DNA of 64,000 nt from Actinomycetota bacterium (GCA_030019255.1 JASEFK010000001.1:184367-248366); one strand, 5' to 3'. Shown: positions 12,035-21,514, counted from the first letter of the stretch. Notes: a model not told the origin generated them from the letters alone. Made by a program: numbers and translations.

Positions 12035-12237
12035 AGCCGCGGAACGACCTCGTTCTCCGGCGTTGTCACGTTGCATGGCTGGGGAGGCGACGAAGCGGAC
12101 CGCGTGGTCCGGGATCGGGCCTCATTGGCTTGTGGCGCCAAACGCCAGGTAGGGTATCCTTCCGGTGGCCTCTACGGGAGCCGGTGGAGTGCCCGCCGAG
12201 TTGTTCGCTTCCCGCGGCGGTGATATGATGAATGAAA

Positions 12238-12272
12238 CCTTTAAATCCAGTCCCGTGAGGCTGGCAAGGGAT
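12238..12272 (+). promoter_or_regulatory. PyrR-binding loop (pyr operon attenuation RNA element)
   Basis: AAUCCAGUCCCGUGAGGCUGGCAAGG matches the conserved PyrR binding-loop consensus (ARUCCNGNGAGGCU...GCAAGG). It lies just upstream of a terminator hairpin and of pyrR. Confidence 0.7.
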
Positions 12273-12287
12273 AGCTGATGATGAAAG

Positions 12288-12326
12288 GCAGCCCTCCTGC
12301 GCCGGCCGCAGGGGGGCTTTTTTGGA
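12288..12326 (+). terminator. Intrinsic terminator (pyr leader attenuator)
   Basis: GC-rich hairpin GCCCTCCTGCGCCGGCCGCAGGGGGGC followed by TTTTTT. Confidence 0.75.
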
Positions 12327-12341: not shown

Positions 12342-13026
<685 letters not shown>

Positions 13027-13029
13027 GGC

Positions 13030-13058
13030 CCCGTCCCCGGGACGGGGCTTTTTTTCGG
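13030..13058 (+). terminator. Intrinsic terminator / attenuator between pyrR and pyrB
   Basis: CCCCGTCCCCGGGACGGGGC hairpin followed by TTTTTTT immediately after the pyrR stop. Confidence 0.7.
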
Positions 13059-13103: not shown

Positions 13104-14042
13104 ATGGCCGGTGAAGCCGCGGAGCGGAGGCATCTCCTCGACGTGGACGACCTGACCCGCGAGGACGTGGAGCGGGTCCTGGAGACGGCCCGTTCCTTCT
13201 CTGAGGTCATGCGCCGCCCCATCAAGAAAGTGCCCTCCCTGCGGGGAAAGACGGTGGTAAACCTCTTCTACGAGCCCTCCACCCGCACTCGGCTCTCCTT
13301 CGAGGTGGCCGCCAAGCGCCTCAGCGCCGACGTGCTCAACTTCACCGCCTCCACCTCCAGCGTGGAAAAGGGGGAGAGCCTCAAGGACACCGCCCTAACC
13401 CTGCGGGCCATGGGGGTGGACGCCGTGGTCATCCGCCACCCGGTGGCGGGAACCCCCTGGCTCCTGCGTCGCTGGCTGGACGTCTCGGTGCTCAACGCCG
13501 GGGACGGCATGCACGCCCATCCCACTCAGGCCCTTCTGGACCTCTTCACCATGCGGGAGAGACTCGGGGACCTGGAGGGGAGGACCATCGCCTACGTGGG
13601 GGACATACTCCACTCCCGGGTGGCCCGCTCCGGGTTCAAGGCCTGCCTGGCCATGGGCATGCGGGTCGTTGCCGTGGCTCCTCCCACCCTGCTGCCACCT
13701 GTCCTGCCGGAAGGGGTGGAGGTGTCCTACGACCTGGACGAGGTCATCCCCCGCTGCGACGTCCTCTACATGCTGCGGGTCCAGAAGGAGAGGCTCCTGG
13801 AGGGAAGGTTCCCCTCCCCCCAGGAATATTCCAGGTTTTACCAGTTAAACCTGGAGCGGCTGAGGGCCGCCCGCCCGGGGGTGGTGGTCATGCACCCCGG
13901 GCCCATGAACCGGGGAATGGAGATCGCTTCCGAGGTGGCCGACGCTCCCCACGCGGCCATAACCGCCCAGGTGGCGGCGGGGGTGGCGGTGCGCATGGCC
14001 GTGCTCTTCCTCCTGCTGGGGATGGGGGAGAGGGGGGATTGA
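13104..14042 (+). CDS. pyrB: Aspartate carbamoyltransferase catalytic subunit
   Basis: 312 aa. STRTR, HPTQALLD and HPGP motifs. Confidence 0.9.
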   Translation: MAGEAAERRHLLDVDDLTREDVERVLETARSFSEVMRRPIKKVPSLRGKTVVNLFYEPSTRTRLSFEVAAKRLSADVLNFTASTSSVEKGESLKDTALTLRAMGVDAVVIRHPVAGTPWLLRRWLDVSVLNAGDGMHAHPTQALLDLFTMRERLGDLEGRTIAYVGDILHSRVARSGFKACLAMGMRVVAVAPPTLLPPVLPEGVEVSYDLDEVIPRCDVLYMLRVQKERLLEGRFPSPQEYSRFYQLNLERLRAARPGVVVMHPGPMNRGMEIASEVADAPHAAITAQVAAGVAVRMAVLFLLLGMGERGD

Positions 14043-14043
14043 A

Positions 14044-15390
14044 TTGGCGGATCTACTGCTTCGCGGGGCGCGGGTCATCGATCCCTTCCAGGGCCTGGAC
14101 GAGGTGTTGGACGTGGCCGTATCCCGGGGCCGGGTTTCCGAGGTGGGAAAGGGTCTCTCCGGGGAGGGCCGGGAAGTGCTGGAGGCGGAAGGGCTGGTGC
14201 TCTCGCCGGGATTTTTGGATATGCACGTGCACCTCAGGGACCCGGGGAGGGAGGACGAGGAGACCCTGGAGAGCGGGTTGGAGGCCGCGGTGCGCGGGGG
14301 ATTCACCGCCGTGTGCTGCATGCCCAACACCGACCCTCCCCTGGACAACGCACCCCTGGTGGAGGACCTGGTGCTGCGGGCGCGCGGCCTGGGCCTTGCC
14401 GACCTCTTCCCCGTGGGCTGCGTGACCCGGGGCAGGGAGGGGAAGGAGCTGGCGGAAATGGGGCTCATGTTCGCCAGCGCGGCCCGGGTGAGGGCCTTCT
14501 CCGACGACGGGGACCCGGTGGTCGACTCCGGCCTCATGCGGCGGGCCCTGCAATACGTCCGTAGGTTCGGGGGGGTCATCATTTCCCACCCGGAGGACGT
14601 CAGCCTCTCCCGGGGAGGCCAGGTCAACGAGGGTCGGGTCTCCTTCGCCCTGGGGTTGCGGAGCATTCCCGCCCTCGCCGAGGAGGTGATGGTGGCCCGC
14701 GACCTGCTGCTCGCCGAGGAGACCGGGGCGCGCCTCCACCTGGCTCACCTGAGCACCGCGGGGTCGGTGCGCCTGTTACGGGAGGCCAAAGCGCGGGGGG
14801 TGAGGGTGACCGCCGAGGCCACCCCCCACCACCTGGTCCTGAGCGAATTGGACATCCGGGATTATGACCCGGTATACAAGGTCAACCCTCCCCTGCGCAC
14901 CCCGGAGGACGTGAAGGAATTGCGGCGGGCCCTGGCCGACGGGACCCTGGACGCGGTGGCCACCGACCACGCCCCCCATTCGCCGGAGGAGAAGGAGCGG
15001 GAGTTCGATTACGCCCCCTTCGGCGTGGTGGGAATGGAAAGCGCCTTCCCGGTCCTGTACACGCAGCTGGTGGAGAAGGGGGAACTGGGACTTCCGGTGC
15101 TCATCGAGAGGCTGACCCTGGGCCCGGCGCGGGCCCTGGGACTGGAGCCCCCGGATTACGGGGAGGGGGTACGTCCCGGAGCCAGGGCGGACCTGGTGCT
15201 CCTGGACACGGTGACGGAATGGGTCATCGACGCTTCCGCCTTCGCTTCCCGGGGAAAGAACTGTCCCTTCCACGGTTGGAAAGTGAGGGGAAGGGTGGTC
15301 CTTACCATCAAAGGTGGAAAGGTGGTCTATCGCGCACCGGATTACCGGTGGTCACGCGAACAGGGCGAAAAGGTGAGAGAACGGACCTGA
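14044..15390 (+). CDS. pyrC: Dihydroorotase
   Basis: 448 aa. TTG start. DMHVHLRDPG, CMPNTDPP and DHAPH metal-binding motifs. Confidence 0.9.
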   Translation: MADLLLRGARVIDPFQGLDEVLDVAVSRGRVSEVGKGLSGEGREVLEAEGLVLSPGFLDMHVHLRDPGREDEETLESGLEAAVRGGFTAVCCMPNTDPPLDNAPLVEDLVLRARGLGLADLFPVGCVTRGREGKELAEMGLMFASAARVRAFSDDGDPVVDSGLMRRALQYVRRFGGVIISHPEDVSLSRGGQVNEGRVSFALGLRSIPALAEEVMVARDLLLAEETGARLHLAHLSTAGSVRLLREAKARGVRVTAEATPHHLVLSELDIRDYDPVYKVNPPLRTPEDVKELRRALADGTLDAVATDHAPHSPEEKEREFDYAPFGVVGMESAFPVLYTQLVEKGELGLPVLIERLTLGPARALGLEPPDYGEGVRPGARADLVLLDTVTEWVIDASAFASRGKNCPFHGWKVRGRVVLTIKGGKVVYRAPDYRWSREQGEKVRERT

Positions 15391-15400
15391 AGGACGGTCC

Positions 15401-18325
15401 TTGCGCGGACCTCGACGAGACGAGGGGGTATGGGGATTGAGAATGGTGGACGGCAGGACGGTGCTGGCCGTGGGCCCTGGTCCAGTGACCCTGGACCAGG
15501 GAGCTGGCTTCCAGTATCTAGCAGCGAGAATCTGCCGGCACCTGCGCCGGAGGGGCTTCCGGGTGGCGGTCCTGGAGGACAGTCCGGCCACCCTCATGGA
15601 CGCGGGAGCGGGAGAAGAAGGGGAGCTCTACCTGGAGCCGCCCCTCCCGGAGGTGGTGGTCCGGGTGGCGGAGGAGTGCGGGGCTTCCTCGCTCTGGCTG
15701 GGTACGGCGGGCCGCAGAGGTTGGGCCTTGGCCAGGGAATTGGCGGCGGAGGGGTGGCTGAACCGGGCAGGCCTGGAGATCGCGGATCTACGGGACCGGG
15801 TGCTCTGGGCCTGCGGGGACCGTTCCCTTCTCCGTGAGATGCTGGAGGAAGGGGGGCTCCCCAACCCCGCATTCCGCACGGCATCGAACGTGCGTGAAGC
15901 ACAGGAAGCGGCTTTCGAACTCGGTTTTCCCCTAGTGATCCGCCCGCATTTCTCCAGCGGAGGATGGGGGGCCGGGGTGGCCTTCAACCGGGAGGAGCTG
16001 CCCGACCTGTTCATGGAGGCCTGTGGCAAAAGCCTGGGAGGCGAGGTCCTCATTGAAGAGTACCTTGGCGGGTGGAGGAAATACGTGGTCTGCGTCCTGA
16101 GGGACGGTTGTGGAGGGGTGATGACGGCCGGGATCGTCGAGCAGCTAGAACCACTGCCCCTCCACGAGGAGGACGCCGTGGTGGTCGTGCCTCCCCTGCC
16201 TTCCGGGGAGCTATCCTATGCCCTGGAAGAGATTGCCGGAAAGGCGGCCGAGCTCCTGGGCGTAGTAGGGCTGGCCGAGGTGAAGGTGGCGGTCAGCCGG
16301 GGGTGCGAGAAGGTGTTCGTGCTGGATATGGACGTCGGTCCGAGGAGGGCAACCCCCCTCCTGGAGGTGGCCCTGGGCGCGGACCTGGTGAGTCGACACG
16401 TGGACCTGGTCTGCGGCGGCAAGGTAGAAGACGTTCCCCTAAGTGCGGCACCCAGCGGGACTTACCTGGCCCTGCCCCGCTTCTTCTACCCGGAGGAGGA
16501 GAGGGAGGAGGGCCACCTTCCCCTGGGTTGCCGGGCGGTGGGGAGAACCCTCCTGTGGGGAGGAACCACTGGAGAAGCAGCCCGCACCGCCCTGCGCCTT
16601 CTCGAGGAGGGCGGAAAGGGAATCCGAGAAAGAATCCTCCAGGACCTCAAGGAGCTGGTGCGGCGCGCCGGAGGGGCGCCCGGACGGAGGGAAGATGACA
16701 AGAACCCCGAGGTCGAAGGAGCCCCCTTTACGGAAGGCGTGAAGGGATACGGGTACCCGCTGTGTCTTGCGAGGTCGGCGGAGGGCCTCGGTGGCGGGGG
16801 GACGATGTTCCTGGCCCCGGTGACCCCCCGTCCCGGGAGCGGGCATGAGCTTCACTTCGGCCTTTTCCGCGCCCTGCGTGCCTGGAAGGGACGGGGCGGG
16901 AACGCGGCGGTATACGTGAGCGATCCCGGCTTCGGCCTCTACCTGGTCGGGGAGGCCGACGCCGTCTTCCTGGGCCCCCCCTCCCCGGGAGGAGTGAGGC
17001 GGGCGCTCATGAGTGCGGGGGCGCGCAAGCTGTGCCCCCATTTTGGGGGAGGGGAGGCCTTCGCGCTGGCATGGCGGGTAAGGCAGGAGGGCGGGGATGT
17101 GGAGATACTGGGAGGGTGGGCCGAAGAAGGGGATACAACCGGGTCTCTGCGGCGGCTGCGCTCCTCCGGTCTGCCCCTCGCCGCCTTCGCCGTCGGACGG
17201 GAAGAAGCGGTTGATTTCCTGCGCACCTGCCGGTTCCCCGTGCACCTGACCCTCTTCACCAAAGGCGGGGAGGCGGTGAAGAGGGTGTTCTACTCCGCGG
17301 AGGAGGTCGAGGAATACCTGTCCACGCAATCGGGAGCCACACCTCTGGTGAGGGAATTGAGGGAGGAGTCCCTGGAGGTGATGGTGGAGGCGGTGGCCCG
17401 AAAGGGGAACCTGTCCTGCCTTCTTGCCTGGGAGAGGCTGCAAAGCCCTGGCGGAGATGCCGGGGAGGGGCCGGCCGTCTACCCGCCCCTTCACCTCACC
17501 TCCCAGCAGTACGAGAGGCTGCGGGAGGTGGTGGCGGAGGCCGTAAGGGTGACCGGCTGGAGCGGCAACCTCTCCCTACGCCTGGTGGTGGAGGAGGGGG
17601 AGATGAGGATATGGGACCTCTCTCCAGGGGCCTCCGAGCAGCTCCCCTTCCTCGCCAGGGCTTCCTCGCTGGACCTTCCGGAGCTCGGCCTGGCGGCCCT
17701 CCTGGAGGAGGACGCGCCCTCCGTGTGCCTCGAGGGGACACGGAACGCGGTACGCTATCCCGTCTCGCCCCTCGGGCTCATAGCCGGGGAGGATATCCTT
17801 CTCAACCCCTGCCGGCGCTATACCGGCGAGGTGATGGGAGTGGGCGAGAACCTCGGCTTGGCGCTGGCCAAGATCCTGCGGGGCCTGGGGATGCGTCCCC
17901 CGCCCGGGGGCCGTGTCCTGCTCAGCGTGGCCAACCGGGAGAAGAGGAGGGCGGTACTCCTGGGCCGGGAACTGAACGAGGCGGGATACCGGCTGGCGGC
18001 CACTCGCGGGACGGCGCGGGCCCTACGGGCGGCGGGTATGGAGGTCGAGGAGGTCAACAAGCTCCGCGAAGGGCGGCCCAATGTCCTCGATCTCTTGCGG
18101 AACGGGGAGATACAACTGGTGGTCAACGTACCCCGCGGTCGCCATCCCCACTCGGACGGGTTCTACATACGGGAGGACGCCGCCCGCCACGGCATCCCCT
18201 GCTTCACGAACATGGAAGTAGCCATGGCCCTGGTGAGGGGGATGCGGGCCGCAGGGGAAGGCAGCCGGCCCGTCCGGCCCCTCGGCCGCCCGGTTTCCGA
18301 GGTCACGGCGGGTAGGGGAGGTTGA
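15401..18325 (+). CDS. CarB-like protein (carbamoyl-phosphate synthase large subunit homolog, apparently catalytically degenerate)
   Basis: 974 aa, probable start at ATG 15443. Collinear with CarB. N-term VLAVGPGPVTLDQGAGFQYLAARIC...EDSPATLMD matches GAGPIVIGQACEFDYSG...NSNPATIMTD. Two ATP-grasp-like halves and a recognisable C-terminal MGS-like domain. Many invariant CarB catalytic residues are replaced (for example HTGDS becomes HEEDA). Confidence 0.65.
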   Translation: MRGPRRDEGVWGLRMVDGRTVLAVGPGPVTLDQGAGFQYLAARICRHLRRRGFRVAVLEDSPATLMDAGAGEEGELYLEPPLPEVVVRVAEECGASSLWLGTAGRRGWALARELAAEGWLNRAGLEIADLRDRVLWACGDRSLLREMLEEGGLPNPAFRTASNVREAQEAAFELGFPLVIRPHFSSGGWGAGVAFNREELPDLFMEACGKSLGGEVLIEEYLGGWRKYVVCVLRDGCGGVMTAGIVEQLEPLPLHEEDAVVVVPPLPSGELSYALEEIAGKAAELLGVVGLAEVKVAVSRGCEKVFVLDMDVGPRRATPLLEVALGADLVSRHVDLVCGGKVEDVPLSAAPSGTYLALPRFFYPEEEREEGHLPLGCRAVGRTLLWGGTTGEAARTALRLLEEGGKGIRERILQDLKELVRRAGGAPGRREDDKNPEVEGAPFTEGVKGYGYPLCLARSAEGLGGGGTMFLAPVTPRPGSGHELHFGLFRALRAWKGRGGNAAVYVSDPGFGLYLVGEADAVFLGPPSPGGVRRALMSAGARKLCPHFGGGEAFALAWRVRQEGGDVEILGGWAEEGDTTGSLRRLRSSGLPLAAFAVGREEAVDFLRTCRFPVHLTLFTKGGEAVKRVFYSAEEVEEYLSTQSGATPLVRELREESLEVMVEAVARKGNLSCLLAWERLQSPGGDAGEGPAVYPPLHLTSQQYERLREVVAEAVRVTGWSGNLSLRLVVEEGEMRIWDLSPGASEQLPFLARASSLDLPELGLAALLEEDAPSVCLEGTRNAVRYPVSPLGLIAGEDILLNPCRRYTGEVMGVGENLGLALAKILRGLGMRPPPGGRVLLSVANREKRRAVLLGRELNEAGYRLAATRGTARALRAAGMEVEEVNKLREGRPNVLDLLRNGEIQLVVNVPRGRHPHSDGFYIREDAARHGIPCFTNMEVAMALVRGMRAAGEGSRPVRPLGRPVSEVTAGRGG

Positions 18326-18328
18326 GGT

Positions 18329-19129
18329 TTGCCACCCCTTCTCTTCAGGGCGCCGGTGGTGGAGAGGCGGGATTATGGCTGCGCTTCGGAGGTCGTCTTC
18401 CGGGTGCCTCCCGGGTTCTCACTCCACCCGGGACAGTTCCTGCATCTCCTCTGCGAGGGAGAGGGAAGGATAGTGCGCCGCCCCTTCAGCGTCTTCCGGC
18501 ACCGCGGGGAGACCGCCTCCGTTCTGGTCAGGGAGGCGGGCGGGGGTTCGGCCTGGCTGCGTCGGAGGAGGCCGGGGGACGAGCTGGACGTCCTGGGTCC
18601 CCTGGGAAGGGGGTTCGACCCACCGGTGGAGGGCGAAGAAGTTATCCTGGTCGCCGGAGGGGTGGGAGTGGCCCCCCTGGCCTGTCTCGGCCGCTGGCTG
18701 CGGGAGAGGGGTGGGAGGGTGACCTTCCTCTGGGGGATGGAGAGCGGAGCGGAGTACGGCACCCTTCCCGAGGTGCTGGCGGAAGAGCTCGACCTACGCC
18801 TGGCCACCGCGGACGGTTCCCGGGGGGAGGAGGGGACGGTACTCGACCTCCTGCCTCCGAAGACGCCTCCCGTGGGGCGCCGGTACTACGCCTGCGGCCC
18901 GCGGCCCATGCTGCTGGCCCTGGCGGAACGGTTGTCCCCCGGCGGCCTTTCTTCCCTCCAGGTGAGCGTGGAGGAGAGGATGGCCTGCGGGCTGGGCGCC
19001 TGCCGGGGGTGCGCGGTGCCCGCGGCGGATCCACCCGGGGGCTACCTGGCGGCCTGCCGGGACGGACCGGTTTTCAGGGGGGAGGAACTGGATTGGCACC
19101 GACTAAGGGGGTCAGGTCTTGAATCGTGA
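18329..19129 (+). CDS. pyrK: Dihydroorotate dehydrogenase electron transfer subunit
   Basis: 266 aa. FAD/NAD-binding fold and C-terminal 2Fe-2S motif ERMACGLGACRGCAV. Confidence 0.85.
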   Translation: MPPLLFRAPVVERRDYGCASEVVFRVPPGFSLHPGQFLHLLCEGEGRIVRRPFSVFRHRGETASVLVREAGGGSAWLRRRRPGDELDVLGPLGRGFDPPVEGEEVILVAGGVGVAPLACLGRWLRERGGRVTFLWGMESGAEYGTLPEVLAEELDLRLATADGSRGEEGTVLDLLPPKTPPVGRRYYACGPRPMLLALAERLSPGGLSSLQVSVEERMACGLGACRGCAVPAADPPGGYLAACRDGPVFRGEELDWHRLRGSGLES

Positions 19130-19147: not shown

Positions 19148-20086
19148 GTGAAGTCAGCTGAGGGAATCGATCTGAGGGTGGAGCTTGCGGGAATCTCCCT
19201 GAAGAACCCTTTCCTGGTCTGCTCGGGCACATTCGGCAACGGCAGGGAGATGTCCGAGCTAGTGGACCTCAACGCCCTGGGGGGCTTGATGACCAAGGCG
19301 GTGACCCTCGAGCCCTGCGCGGGGAACCCTCCTCCCCGCCTCTGGGAGACTCCATCGGGGATGCTGAATTCCATAGGCCTGGAGAACAAGGGCCTGGAGA
19401 GGTTCCTGGCCGAGGATCTGTCCTGGCTCTCCCGCTTCAACCTGCCGGTGTGGGTGAACGTGGCCGGCTTCAGCGCCCGGGAGTACGTGGAGGTGGCGGG
19501 GGAGGTTTCCCGCTCCGGGCTGGCCGCGGCGGTGGAGCTCAACATTTCCTGCCCCAACGTGGAAAAAGGAGGGGCCCACTTCTCGCGCCATCCCCGGGAG
19601 GCGGCAGGGCTGGTGGCCCGGGTGCGCGAGGCGGTGGACATCCCGCTCTTCGTCAAGCTGCCCCCGCTTCCGGGCGGCATGCGGGATATGGCCCGCGCCG
19701 TGGCCGAGGCGGGAGCCGACGGACTGTCCCTGATCAACACCATCCCCGGCATGGCCATTGACGTGGAGAGGGGATGTCCCCGCCTGGGGAACGTGACCGG
19801 AGGGCTTTCCGGCCCCGCCATCCATCCGGTGGCCGTGCACGCGGTCTGGGAGGCCTCGGGTTCCGTAGACCTCCCGATCATCGGCATGGGGGGGATATGG
19901 TCGTGCTCCGACGCCGTGGAAATGTTCATGGCCGGGGCCGGAGCGGTGGCCGTGGGCACCCTGAACCTCGTGGACCCCCGGGCGGTGCCCCGCCTGGTGG
20001 AGGAGCTGGCGGGGTTCATGCGGCGAAAGGGTTACCGCAGGGTCTCGGAGATGGTGGGTCTCCTCCGCCGGAGGGGGTGGGGATGA
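19148..20086 (+). CDS. pyrD: Dihydroorotate dehydrogenase (class 1B) catalytic subunit
   Basis: 312 aa. NPFLVCSGTFG, NSIGLENKG and GGI motifs. Confidence 0.9.
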   Translation: MKSAEGIDLRVELAGISLKNPFLVCSGTFGNGREMSELVDLNALGGLMTKAVTLEPCAGNPPPRLWETPSGMLNSIGLENKGLERFLAEDLSWLSRFNLPVWVNVAGFSAREYVEVAGEVSRSGLAAAVELNISCPNVEKGGAHFSRHPREAAGLVARVREAVDIPLFVKLPPLPGGMRDMARAVAEAGADGLSLINTIPGMAIDVERGCPRLGNVTGGLSGPAIHPVAVHAVWEASGSVDLPIIGMGGIWSCSDAVEMFMAGAGAVAVGTLNLVDPRAVPRLVEELAGFMRRKGYRRVSEMVGLLRRRGWG

Positions 20087-20811
20087 TGGCCGCCGCGCGC
20101 CGCGTGGAGGATCCGCTGATCCTGGCCCTGGACGTCTCGGAATGGGAAAAGCTGGAAGCGCTGGCCGAGATGTTCCGGGGGGAGGTGGGGACGGTAAAGC
20201 TGGGCCTGGAGGCCTACACCCGCTTCGGTCCTGCCGTTTTCCGGGAGATGAAGGAGAAGGGCTTCCGGGTCTTCGCCGACCTCAAGCTCCACGATATCCC
20301 CAACACCGTGCGGGGGGCGGTGGAGGCCCTGGTAAGGTGGGGGGTGGACATGATCACCGTCCACCTCTGCGGGGGCAGGAAGATGCTGGAAGCGGCGGTT
20401 CAAGCCGTCCGCGGAAGCGGGGGGAGGAGAGTTCGGGTGCCGCTGCTCCTTGGGGTCACCGTGCTCACCAGCTTGAAGGATGGGGACCTCGAGGAGATGG
20501 GCTGGCGGGGAGGCGTGTCGGAGAGCGTGCTCCGGCTGGCCAGGCTGGGCGTCTCCTGCGGGCTGGACGGGTTGGTCTGCTCGCCCGGGGAGGCGGCGGA
20601 GCTCCGGCGCGAGCTGGGGGCCGGCCCCTTCCTGGTCACTCCGGGCATCCGGCCGGAGGGCGCGGAGGCCCATGACCAGGCCAGGATGGCCACCCCGGGA
20701 GAGGCCCTCCGGGCGGGGGCGGATTATCTGGTGGTGGGGAGGGCGGTCACCGGTCACCCGCGTCCCCTGGAGGCTCTGAGCGCCTTGAAGCGGGAGATTG
20801 GTTTATCATAG
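20083..20811 (+). CDS. pyrF: Orotidine 5'-phosphate decarboxylase
   Basis: ATG 20083 overlaps the pyrD stop (ATGA). LILALDV...KLGLE, DLKLHDIPNTV and LVVGRAV motifs. About 242 aa. Confidence 0.85.
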   Translation: MMAAARRVEDPLILALDVSEWEKLEALAEMFRGEVGTVKLGLEAYTRFGPAVFREMKEKGFRVFADLKLHDIPNTVRGAVEALVRWGVDMITVHLCGGRKMLEAAVQAVRGSGGRRVRVPLLLGVTVLTSLKDGDLEEMGWRGGVSESVLRLARLGVSCGLDGLVCSPGEAAELRRELGAGPFLVTPGIRPEGAEAHDQARMATPGEALRAGADYLVVGRAVTGHPRPLEALSALKREIGLS

Positions 20812-20941: not shown

Positions 20942-21514
20942 ATGAACCAGTGGGAGGTGCTGGAGATACTGGAGAGGGAGAGGGCCGTGCAGAAGGGCCA
21001 TTTCCTCCTCTCCTCCGGACTGCACAGCGATACTTACGTGCAATGTGCGCGCGTCCTGCAGCATCCTCACCTGGCGGAGAGCCTGGCGGACGAGCTGGCC
21101 CGGGGTTTCACCGGGGTACCGGTGGACGTGGTGATCAGCCCCGCGCTGGGCGGCATCATCATCGGGTACATGGTAGCCTTGGCCATGCGCCGGAGGATGG
21201 TCTTCGCCGAGAGGGTGGACGGACGCCTTACCCTGCGCCGGGGACAGAACCTGGAGAAGGGAGAGAGGGCCCTCATCGTGGAGGACGTCATAACCACCGG
21301 CGGCTCGGTCCAGGAACTCATGGAGCTGGTGGAATCCAAGGGAGGAGTGACCGCCGGCCTGGGGGCCATCATCGAGAGGGGGGAGGACCGCGACTTCGGG
21401 GTCCCCAAGAAGGTCCTGGTACGCCTGGAGGCACCGGTGTGGGAGCCCGGCAGTTGCCCTCTATGCCGGGAAGGCCTGGAGCTGGAGGCCCCCGGCAGTC
21501 GGCACCTGGCCTGA
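20942..21514 (+). CDS. pyrE: Orotate phosphoribosyltransferase
   Basis: 190 aa. GHFLLSSGLHSDTY and the PRPP motif LIVEDVITTGGS. Confidence 0.9.
   Translation: MNQWEVLEILERERAVQKGHFLLSSGLHSDTYVQCARVLQHPHLAESLADELARGFTGVPVDVVISPALGGIIIGYMVALAMRRRMVFAERVDGRLTLRRGQNLEKGERALIVEDVITTGGSVQELMELVESKGGVTAGLGAIIERGEDRDFGVPKKVLVRLEAPVWEPGSCPLCREGLELEAPGSRHLA

Follow-up and report, generated by a model that had tools for sequence, protein, structure and literature searches.

CarB, the large subunit of carbamoyl-phosphate synthase (CPSase), is among the most conserved of enzymes, and its gene is as a rule counted among the essential core. In the literature searched, we found no CarB described as inactive or remodelled. 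Disabled relatives of other pathway components are described. PyrC' of class A aspartate carbamoyltransferase (ATCase) and the dihydroorotase-like domain of fungal URA2 are disabled pyrimidine-pathway homologues kept within the pathway's gene set; the N-terminal glutaminase-like domain of human CPS1 (5DOU), the ammonia-dependent CPS I, is a CPS module without catalysis, kept for structure or regulation. The subject of this report bears a likeness to each of these. It is a CarB-like gene in a compact pyr operon of an Actinomycetota bacterium, found in a stretch of 64,000 nucleotides (GCA_030019255.1, JASEFK010000001.1:184367-248366) here called the window. The gene, at positions 15443-18325, is the positional orthologue of carB/pyrAB and likely encodes a protein of 960 amino acids (aa); like all features described below, it lies on the plus strand.

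Comparison with CarB/PyrAB as known from Escherichia coli (1BXR/1JDB) sets out what has stayed and what has gone. Shared are the fold, the order ATP-grasp/ATP-grasp/MGS, the operon slot and six putative contacts to uridine or inosine monophosphate (UMP/IMP). Missing, by the same comparison, are a nearby CarA gene, the oligomerisation domain and the canonical metal and substrate ligands; the score against the CarB equivalog reaches only about half the cut-off, and the conservation of the domains is reversed. The likeness to PyrC' is likewise partial. PyrC' is an amidohydrolase with a demonstrated structural role, whereas the CarB-like protein is an ATP-grasp CPSase homologue with a putative one; unlike PyrC', it has a ligand-binding allosteric domain that appears undamaged. 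CPS1 has a dead amidotransferase beside intact synthetase sites, while the present locus has lost the amidotransferase and carries altered synthetase sites.

One way to understand this combination is to suppose that a CPSase subunit ceased to be an enzyme and was kept for its capacity to sense nucleotides. We give about an even chance to the reading that the protein is a nucleotide-sensing pseudo-CPSase that serves the pyrimidine pathway as a subunit for regulation or scaffolding. It is a full-length CarB homologue. It falls short of the family thresholds for CarB itself, with 314.8 bits against equivalog NF003671 (cut-off 599) and 275 bits against TIGR01369 (cut-off 1027). Pfam recognises one CPSase_L_D1, one CPSase_L_D2 and an MGS domain (PF02142, 69.9 bits), the last in agreement with the MGS-like tail noticed in a preliminary description of the window; neither a second CPSase_L_D2 nor the oligomerisation domain (PF02787) is matched in the protein.

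The predicted structure keeps the three-dimensional architecture of CarB. The AlphaFold2 model, for which the family alignment was used, is confident (predicted local distance difference test, pLDDT, 83; predicted template modelling score, pTM, 0.89) and has two ATP-grasp-like halves, a short helical remnant with a disordered linker at residues 411-435, and the MGS domain. The best Foldseek match to the model is E. coli CarB, 1bxr_A (E 5.6e-67, TMq 0.86, 21% identity). Between the halves, aa 391-455 (16613-16807) are what remains of the oligomerisation domain, now a largely disordered linker with pLDDT below 50 at residues 411-435; columns of this region (PF02787, CPSase_L_D3) that are invariant in CarB are gaps in the family alignment. 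The collinearity with CarB that had been proposed earlier thus holds for overall domain order and fold, and fails where this domain is missing and the disordered linker stands. Two other short CarB homologues, P0114 (965 aa) and P0119 (929 aa), also lack a Pfam match to the oligomerisation domain and keep all checked catalytic residues at both sites; loss of the domain alone therefore need not mean that catalysis is lost.

Residues were mapped, in E. coli CarB numbering, from a phmmer alignment to 1bxr and from multiple alignments. The preliminary description had singled out three motif changes: GQACEFDYSG to DQGAGFQYLA, HTGDS to HEEDA and EVNPRAAR to DLSPGASE. It had allowed that these might be errors of register. 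The phmmer alignment pairs all three as described, and the multiple alignments agree that the motifs are in register and truly substituted. Residue by residue, the substitutions are at positions that bind metal or substrate, in both active sites. The N-terminal module (15443-16612, aa 1-390) comprises a pre-ATP-grasp and an ATP-grasp domain, CPSase_L_D1 and CPSase_L_D2. Its carboxyphosphate site carries E215K, N236Q, N283E, Q285K, E299D, N301D and R303G; these replacements hit metal, K+ and bicarbonate ligands and leave the ATP-contact residues in place, the site retaining R129, R169, the glycine-rich loop, E208, H243 and R306. By its contact residues the N-terminal ATP-grasp is probably competent to bind nucleotide. 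The second ATP-grasp module (16808-17842, aa 456-800) is degenerate, with its fold kept. Here the carbamoyl-phosphate site carries R715T, H788D, Q829R, E841D, N843S, R845G and R848E, and the glycine loop is replaced as well; E761 is kept in the window protein. At both sites, then, residues essential to the ancestral reaction have been lost, which is one mark of a pseudoenzyme.

Within the family the two sites behave differently. Each ATP contact (R129, R169, the glycine-rich loop, E208 and H243) is conserved in at least 96% of members or in all of them, and the distant Geothermincola-type orthologues L012 and L028 have these contacts too. Among Solincola-type members, positions 215, 283, 285 and 299 (E, N, Q and E in E. 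coli) are K in 98%, E in 100%, K in 100% and D in 100%, N236Q is likewise fixed, and the N-site set K213, Q234, E279, K281 and D295 is invariant or nearly so. Position 301 is N in 89% and D in 11%, D being the residue of the window's subclade; position 303 drifts (R in 19, G in 12, W in 6, Q in 2), with G in the window. The invariant lysines, glutamate and aspartate could be a charge network that fills a vacated site, or a remodelled active site. The Geothermincola-type N site reads E215, Q236, E283, E285, G/E299, L/F301, G303 and Q306; the two clades have no N-site catalytic constellation in common, which argues against metal-ATP chemistry as the function conserved throughout the orthologous group. 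What the window protein does have in common with both Geothermincola-type orthologues is N236Q, N283E, R303G, Q829R and R845G. These shared changes suggest that canonical chemistry was lost before Solincola and Geothermincola split.

At the C-terminal site, R715, the glycine loop, H788, E841, N843 and R848 vary among family members, and Q829R and R845G are near-fixed. Judged by its residues, this site is dead and drifts freely. The earlier proposal of a pseudo-enzyme or a neofunctionalised CarB was sound in that the protein is both substituted and maintained; it needs to be taken half by half, since the C site drifts and the N site keeps its ATP contacts.

The allosteric domain shows the reverse behaviour. 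The MGS-like domain occupies aa 815-935 (17885-18247). S948, K954, T974, T977, K993 and N1015 of E. coli CarB, which we take to be its IMP/UMP contacts, are all six kept in every family sequence of the residue table, distant orthologues included; in the family alignment of 45 members, five of them do not vary at all. Family members compared in pairs are on average 76% identical in the MGS domain, 56% in the N half, 45% in the C half and 21% in the linker; in a panel of canonical CarBs the corresponding values are 43%, 69%, 64% and 45%. Set against canonical CarBs from the same operon slot in other Actinomycetota, the window protein shows 28% identity in the N half, 20-24% in the C half and 43-46% in the MGS domain, whereas those canonical proteins compared with one another show 67-69%, 60-65% and 49-55%. 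Domain conservation thus runs opposite to that in true CarB, with the catalytic halves collapsed and the MGS domain barely changed. No other part of the protein is as well conserved as the MGS domain, which is the main target of selection.

Substitution rates give the same picture. The ratio of nonsynonymous to synonymous substitution rates (dN/dS, omega) was estimated against two orthologues about 71-72% identical to the window protein, L017 and L015, at an unsaturated dS of 0.67-0.76. For the whole gene omega is 0.25 (L017) and 0.23 (L015), similar to pyrK (0.23) and not far from pyrF (0.19-0.21); pyrB stands at 0.095. By module the values are 0.18-0.19 for the N half, 0.62-0.96 for the linker (almost neutral), 0.25-0.28 for the C half and 0.05-0.10 for the MGS domain. 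One nucleotide is all that sets the near-identical strains (L002-L007) apart from the window, too little for dN/dS. Against the more distant relative L008, the CarB-like protein is 54% identical and its neighbours 60-90%. The gene evolves fast for a CarB, yet is clearly under purifying selection. That it is maintained and is not a decaying pseudogene, as the preliminary description had it, is upheld by these ratios, by intact reading frames in 45 representatives (917-1020 aa) and by synteny that persists down to about 31% identity.

Gene context points the same way. No CarA partner had been noticed in the window, and none was found: tblastn with five CarA queries at E<=1 gave no credible match, and the Pfam lists for 5437-64000 hold no CPSase_sm_chain, no GATase partner, no second CarB, and no carbamate kinase or other gene of the amino-acid-kinase fold. 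In more than 20 family loci, fetched and searched by tblastn with Pyr proteins and CarA, no carA lies within 10 kb. All have the order pyrR-pyrB-pyrC-X-pyrK-pyrD-pyrF-pyrE, where X is the CarB-like gene, including the distant L012 (protein P0143) and L028 (Geothermincola). By comparison, more than 10 other Actinomycetota metagenome-assembled genomes (MAGs) have pyrR-pyrB-pyrC-carA-carB-pyrK-pyrD-pyrF, with carA immediately upstream in all canonical loci. Because these sister MAGs have carA-carB in the slot, the gene is best taken as the operon's own carB after loss of carA, and not as an added paralogue; it had been called a paralogue retained in the operon, and of that description the retained homologue stands and the paralogy does not. 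The gap from pyrC to the CarB-like gene is only 46-52 nucleotides (nt), from which it follows that carA was removed cleanly.

The family is narrow. A search of 5.8 billion proteins returned about 45 cluster representatives at 41-73% identity, 917-1020 aa long, all from Actinomycetota MAGs (Candidatus Solincola and relatives), all intact and with the same reduced Pfam architecture; canonical CarBs in the same search aligned over just 40-50% of the query, at 25-30% identity. When 1.84 billion representatives at 50% identity were searched with a profile, five full-length members at 1270 bits or more and two fragments came out, with P0143 an outlier at 691 bits and canonical CarBs beginning at 566 bits. 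A scan of Genome Taxonomy Database (GTDB) species with family-specific patterns found carriers in Ca. Solincola tengchongensis, daggyaiensis, sediminis and quzhuomuensis, in many other Actinomycetota MAGs, and in Ca. Geothermincola primus (31% identity); it recovered operon loci and unrelated canonical CarBs, and nothing else. P0046, the best canonical CarB match, was considered as a possible CarB of Solincola and rejected, its contig having 46% GC against 65% and an unrelated gene context. In L001 (6001-9300), a canonical 1099-aa carB lies on a 46%-GC MAG contig of an unrelated lineage, and the 6 kb to each side of it hold no carA.

The history we favour would begin with a vertically inherited carB/pyrAB in a Bacillus-type, PyrR-attenuated pyr operon. 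An ancestor of Solincola and Geothermincola would have lost the CarA partner, the oligomerisation domain and the catalytic ligands of both ATP-grasp sites, and would afterwards have retained the gene as a non-CPSase protein. Selection would now keep the CarB fold, the N-terminal contacts to adenine nucleotide and, most strongly, the UMP/IMP-binding MGS domain. A pyrimidine or purine mononucleotide would bind at the MGS domain and an adenine nucleotide, probably, at the N domain; the signal may then be relayed by protein-protein contacts within the pyrimidine pathway. Likely partners would be the PyrB-PyrC complex, the enzyme that makes heat-labile carbamoyl phosphate, or both. Such an arrangement would not be foreign to the pathway: class A ATCases assemble with active or inactive dihydroorotase, and channelling of carbamoyl phosphate is documented in thermophiles (PMC6022934). 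The gene shares PyrR attenuation with the rest of the pathway and is tightly packed or overlapping with pyrC and pyrK.

Three points weigh against this pseudo-CPSase reading. The C half, at omega 0.25-0.28, is still constrained, possibly for fold or interface only. The invariant Solincola-type N-site set (K213, Q234, E279, K281, D295) also fits a remodelled site that works. Finally, if the carriers have no other source of carbamoyl phosphate, a purely regulatory role would be incomplete.

A second perspective takes the N-site set at face value and supposes a neofunctionalised ATP-grasp enzyme, in which the N site would carry out some other ATP-dependent ligation or phosphorylation, relevant to pyrimidines and regulated through the MGS domain. 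We regard this as unlikely, while ranking it first among the alternatives. The constellation is invariant within the Solincola-type clade and yet is not that of CarB; the ATP-contact residues are intact; the N module has an omega of 0.18-0.19; and NCBI annotation goes no further than 'ATP-binding protein' or 'ATP-grasp domain-containing protein'. However, the operon's pathway from pyrB to pyrE is already complete and has no step in need of a ligase, the Geothermincola-type orthologues do not have the same N-site constellation, and no new domain or neighbouring gene hints at a new substrate.

A third perspective, which we consider improbable, keeps the ancestral product and changes the route to it: an enzyme independent of CarA would form carbamoyl phosphate from free ammonia or carbamate at a single, remodelled N-terminal ATP-grasp site, with Lys213 in place of the activating K+, Lys281 in place of one metal ion, and the dead C half and MGS domain serving regulation. 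There is precedent for the first of these replacements: K+-independent pyruvate kinases have a Glu-to-Lys change at the monovalent-cation site, and E215K could in principle act likewise. Little or no variation is found at the ATP contacts R129, R169, the glycine loop, E208 and H243, and K213, Q234, E279, K281 and D295 are near-invariant despite divergence to 41% identity. Strong constraint on pyrB implies a need for carbamoyl phosphate, and the 64-kb window shows no other source. The difficulties lie in the chemistry. R303, which we take from the E. coli mutagenesis literature to be needed for the bicarbonate step, is not conserved (R, G, W or Q, with G in the window), and the window protein has N301D, a change that presumably, from the same literature, cripples E. 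coli CPS. At positions 299, 301, 303 and 306 the Geothermincola-type proteins have G/E, L/F, G and Q, with which canonical metal-ATP binding is impossible; the carbamate-phosphorylating C site is, to judge from its residues, clearly dead; and, contrary to what is seen in true CarB, the allosteric tail changes more slowly than the catalytic halves. A fuller version of this idea is more improbable again: the Solincola-type clade would have neither canonical CarAB nor carbamate kinase, and the protein would be a new CarA-independent, single-site ATP-grasp enzyme forming carbamoyl phosphate, gated by UMP/IMP, with lysines (K213, K281) standing in for K+ and metal.

That the gene is a decaying relic, left behind when carAB became dispensable, is hardly credible: it does evolve faster than its neighbours (54% against 60-90% identity between the window and L008) and its linker has an omega near 1, but the frame is intact in all 45 representatives (917-1020 aa) and in distant orthologues too, the whole gene has an omega of 0.23-0.25 and its MGS domain one of 0.05-0.10, the AlphaFold2 model is confident, and the neighbours are tightly packed or overlapping.

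If the pseudo-CPSase reading is right, carbamoyl phosphate would be made elsewhere. It must have some source, because pyrB is strongly constrained and Ca. Solincola is reported to make arginine. The paper on Ca. Solincola uaceae mentions arginine biosynthesis and not carbamoyl phosphate; hot springs are the habitat of the organism (PMC12917137). In Pyrococcus and Thermococcus, a carbamate-kinase-like CPS makes carbamoyl phosphate without CarAB and channels it to ATCase and ornithine carbamoyltransferase (PMC6022934). By analogy, an enzyme of this kind is a candidate for the real source in the present lineage. It has the amino-acid kinase fold and is unrelated to CarB, and none is seen in the window. 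For a related actinobacterium with the Wood-Ljungdahl pathway, from Hakuba, carbamate kinase (Arc) appears among the abbreviations of a figure legend, a mere hint (PMC7325909).

The locus is of interest on several counts. In a lineage of thermophilic, Wood-Ljungdahl-type anaerobes, at the level of a class, the CarB of the pyr operon would have turned into a protein unable to run the textbook reaction and has long been kept under selection. If a pseudoenzyme, it would be a CPSase-derived addition to the few that are embedded in a pathway, such as PyrC', and it would offer a natural experiment in which the allosteric domain of CarB has been uncoupled from catalysis. It also raises the question of how the carriers make carbamoyl phosphate and protect this heat-labile compound. 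There is a practical side as well: several family members carry the JGI label 'carbamoylphosphate synthase large subunit', and in metabolic reconstructions such a label would wrongly complete the pathway. The only NCBI family labels are the two general ones given above, and the title of record WP_458012459.1 is 'ATP-binding protein [Candidatus Solincola sp.]'.

Degenerate CarB-like proteins are not confined to this family. About 50 of the best 150 representatives at 50% identity matched by the family profile (P0148-P0283) are other full-length CarB-like proteins with catalytic residues substituted in one or both halves. Degenerate CarB paralogues may be widespread in metagenomes, individual cases being open to alignment error. 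Two of those considered, P0158 and P0150 (loci L013 and L014), were rejected as members of the present system; they lie on short contigs, in contexts outside pyr operons.

The start of the gene admits several choices. Counted from its first TTG the open reading frame (ORF) runs from 15401 to 18325, 974 codons; that TTG is only the start of the longest ORF. Public gene calls begin at TTG 15437 (962 aa, P0128) or ATG 15443 (960 aa, WP_458012459.1). A Shine-Dalgarno-like GAGGGGG run stands at 15422-15428, and the start is likely the ATG at 15443. The window protein is MDI6872843.1, encoded on a 355-kb MAG contig. Between the window and JBRBPE010000014.1 (GCA_054165685.1) a single base differs: position 16740 is T in the window and C in that contig and in five Logan contigs, a change of Ala433 to Val in the disordered linker.

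In pyrR, the PyrR-binding RNA and gene order (pyrR-pyrB-pyrC-CarB-like gene-pyrK-pyrD-pyrF-pyrE), the operon is a PyrR-attenuated pyr operon of the Bacillus type, with pyrAA missing and pyrAB replaced. The PyrR-binding RNA (Rfam RF00515) lies upstream of the operon at 12234-12326 and scores 55.3 bits against a gathering threshold of 54 (E 1.4e-5); a terminator-like hairpin with a T-run stands inside this attenuator region at 12290-12318. The gene pyrR (12484-13026) passes its equivalog with room to spare (NF003549, 255.9 bits against 138). It is followed by pyrB (13104-14042), for the aspartate carbamoyltransferase catalytic chain (Pfam OTCace_N and OTCace; NF002032, 394.8 against 263), the consumer of carbamoyl phosphate, 82% identical to its L008 orthologue, and by pyrC (14044-15390), for a long-type dihydroorotase (Pfam Amidohydro_1 and DHOase; TIGR00857, 398 against 279). 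Beyond the CarB-like gene come pyrK (18329-19129), for the electron-transfer subunit of class 1B dihydroorotate dehydrogenase (Pfam DHODB_Fe-S_bind), pyrD (19148-20086), for the dehydrogenase itself (Pfam DHO_dh, 239.7 bits; NF005574, 372 against 269), pyrF (20083-20811), for orotidine monophosphate decarboxylase (Pfam OMPdecase; NF001273, 252.6 against 193), and pyrE (20942-21514), for orotate phosphoribosyltransferase (TIGR01367, 190 against 150). Four nucleotides separate the stop of the CarB-like gene from the start of pyrK; in L008 the two genes overlap.

Divergence had been thought specific to the CarB-like gene. PyrR, PyrB, PyrD, PyrF and PyrE do pass their equivalog cut-offs, and PyrC passes TIGR00857, but PyrK fails too: its scores fall well short of every NCBIfam equivalog cut-off for PyrK (144.6 against 314; 114.9 against 219). 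At 60% identity between the window and L008 it is the operon's second most diverged gene.

Two further features lie around pyrR. A GC-rich hairpin with a T-run also lies between pyrR and pyrB, at 13033-13048; it has no Rfam match at E<=0.1, and the two hairpins together suggest that the operon has two PyrR attenuators. In addition, a 69-nt direct repeat (12342-12410 and 12484-12552, 97% identical, at a spacing of 142 nt) copies codons 1-23 of pyrR; in the relative L008 no such repeat was seen. The upstream copy begins a short ORF (12342-12479) directly 3' of the PyrR-binding RNA, a 43-aa gene in the public record. The repeat could be a leader peptide or the scar of a duplication.

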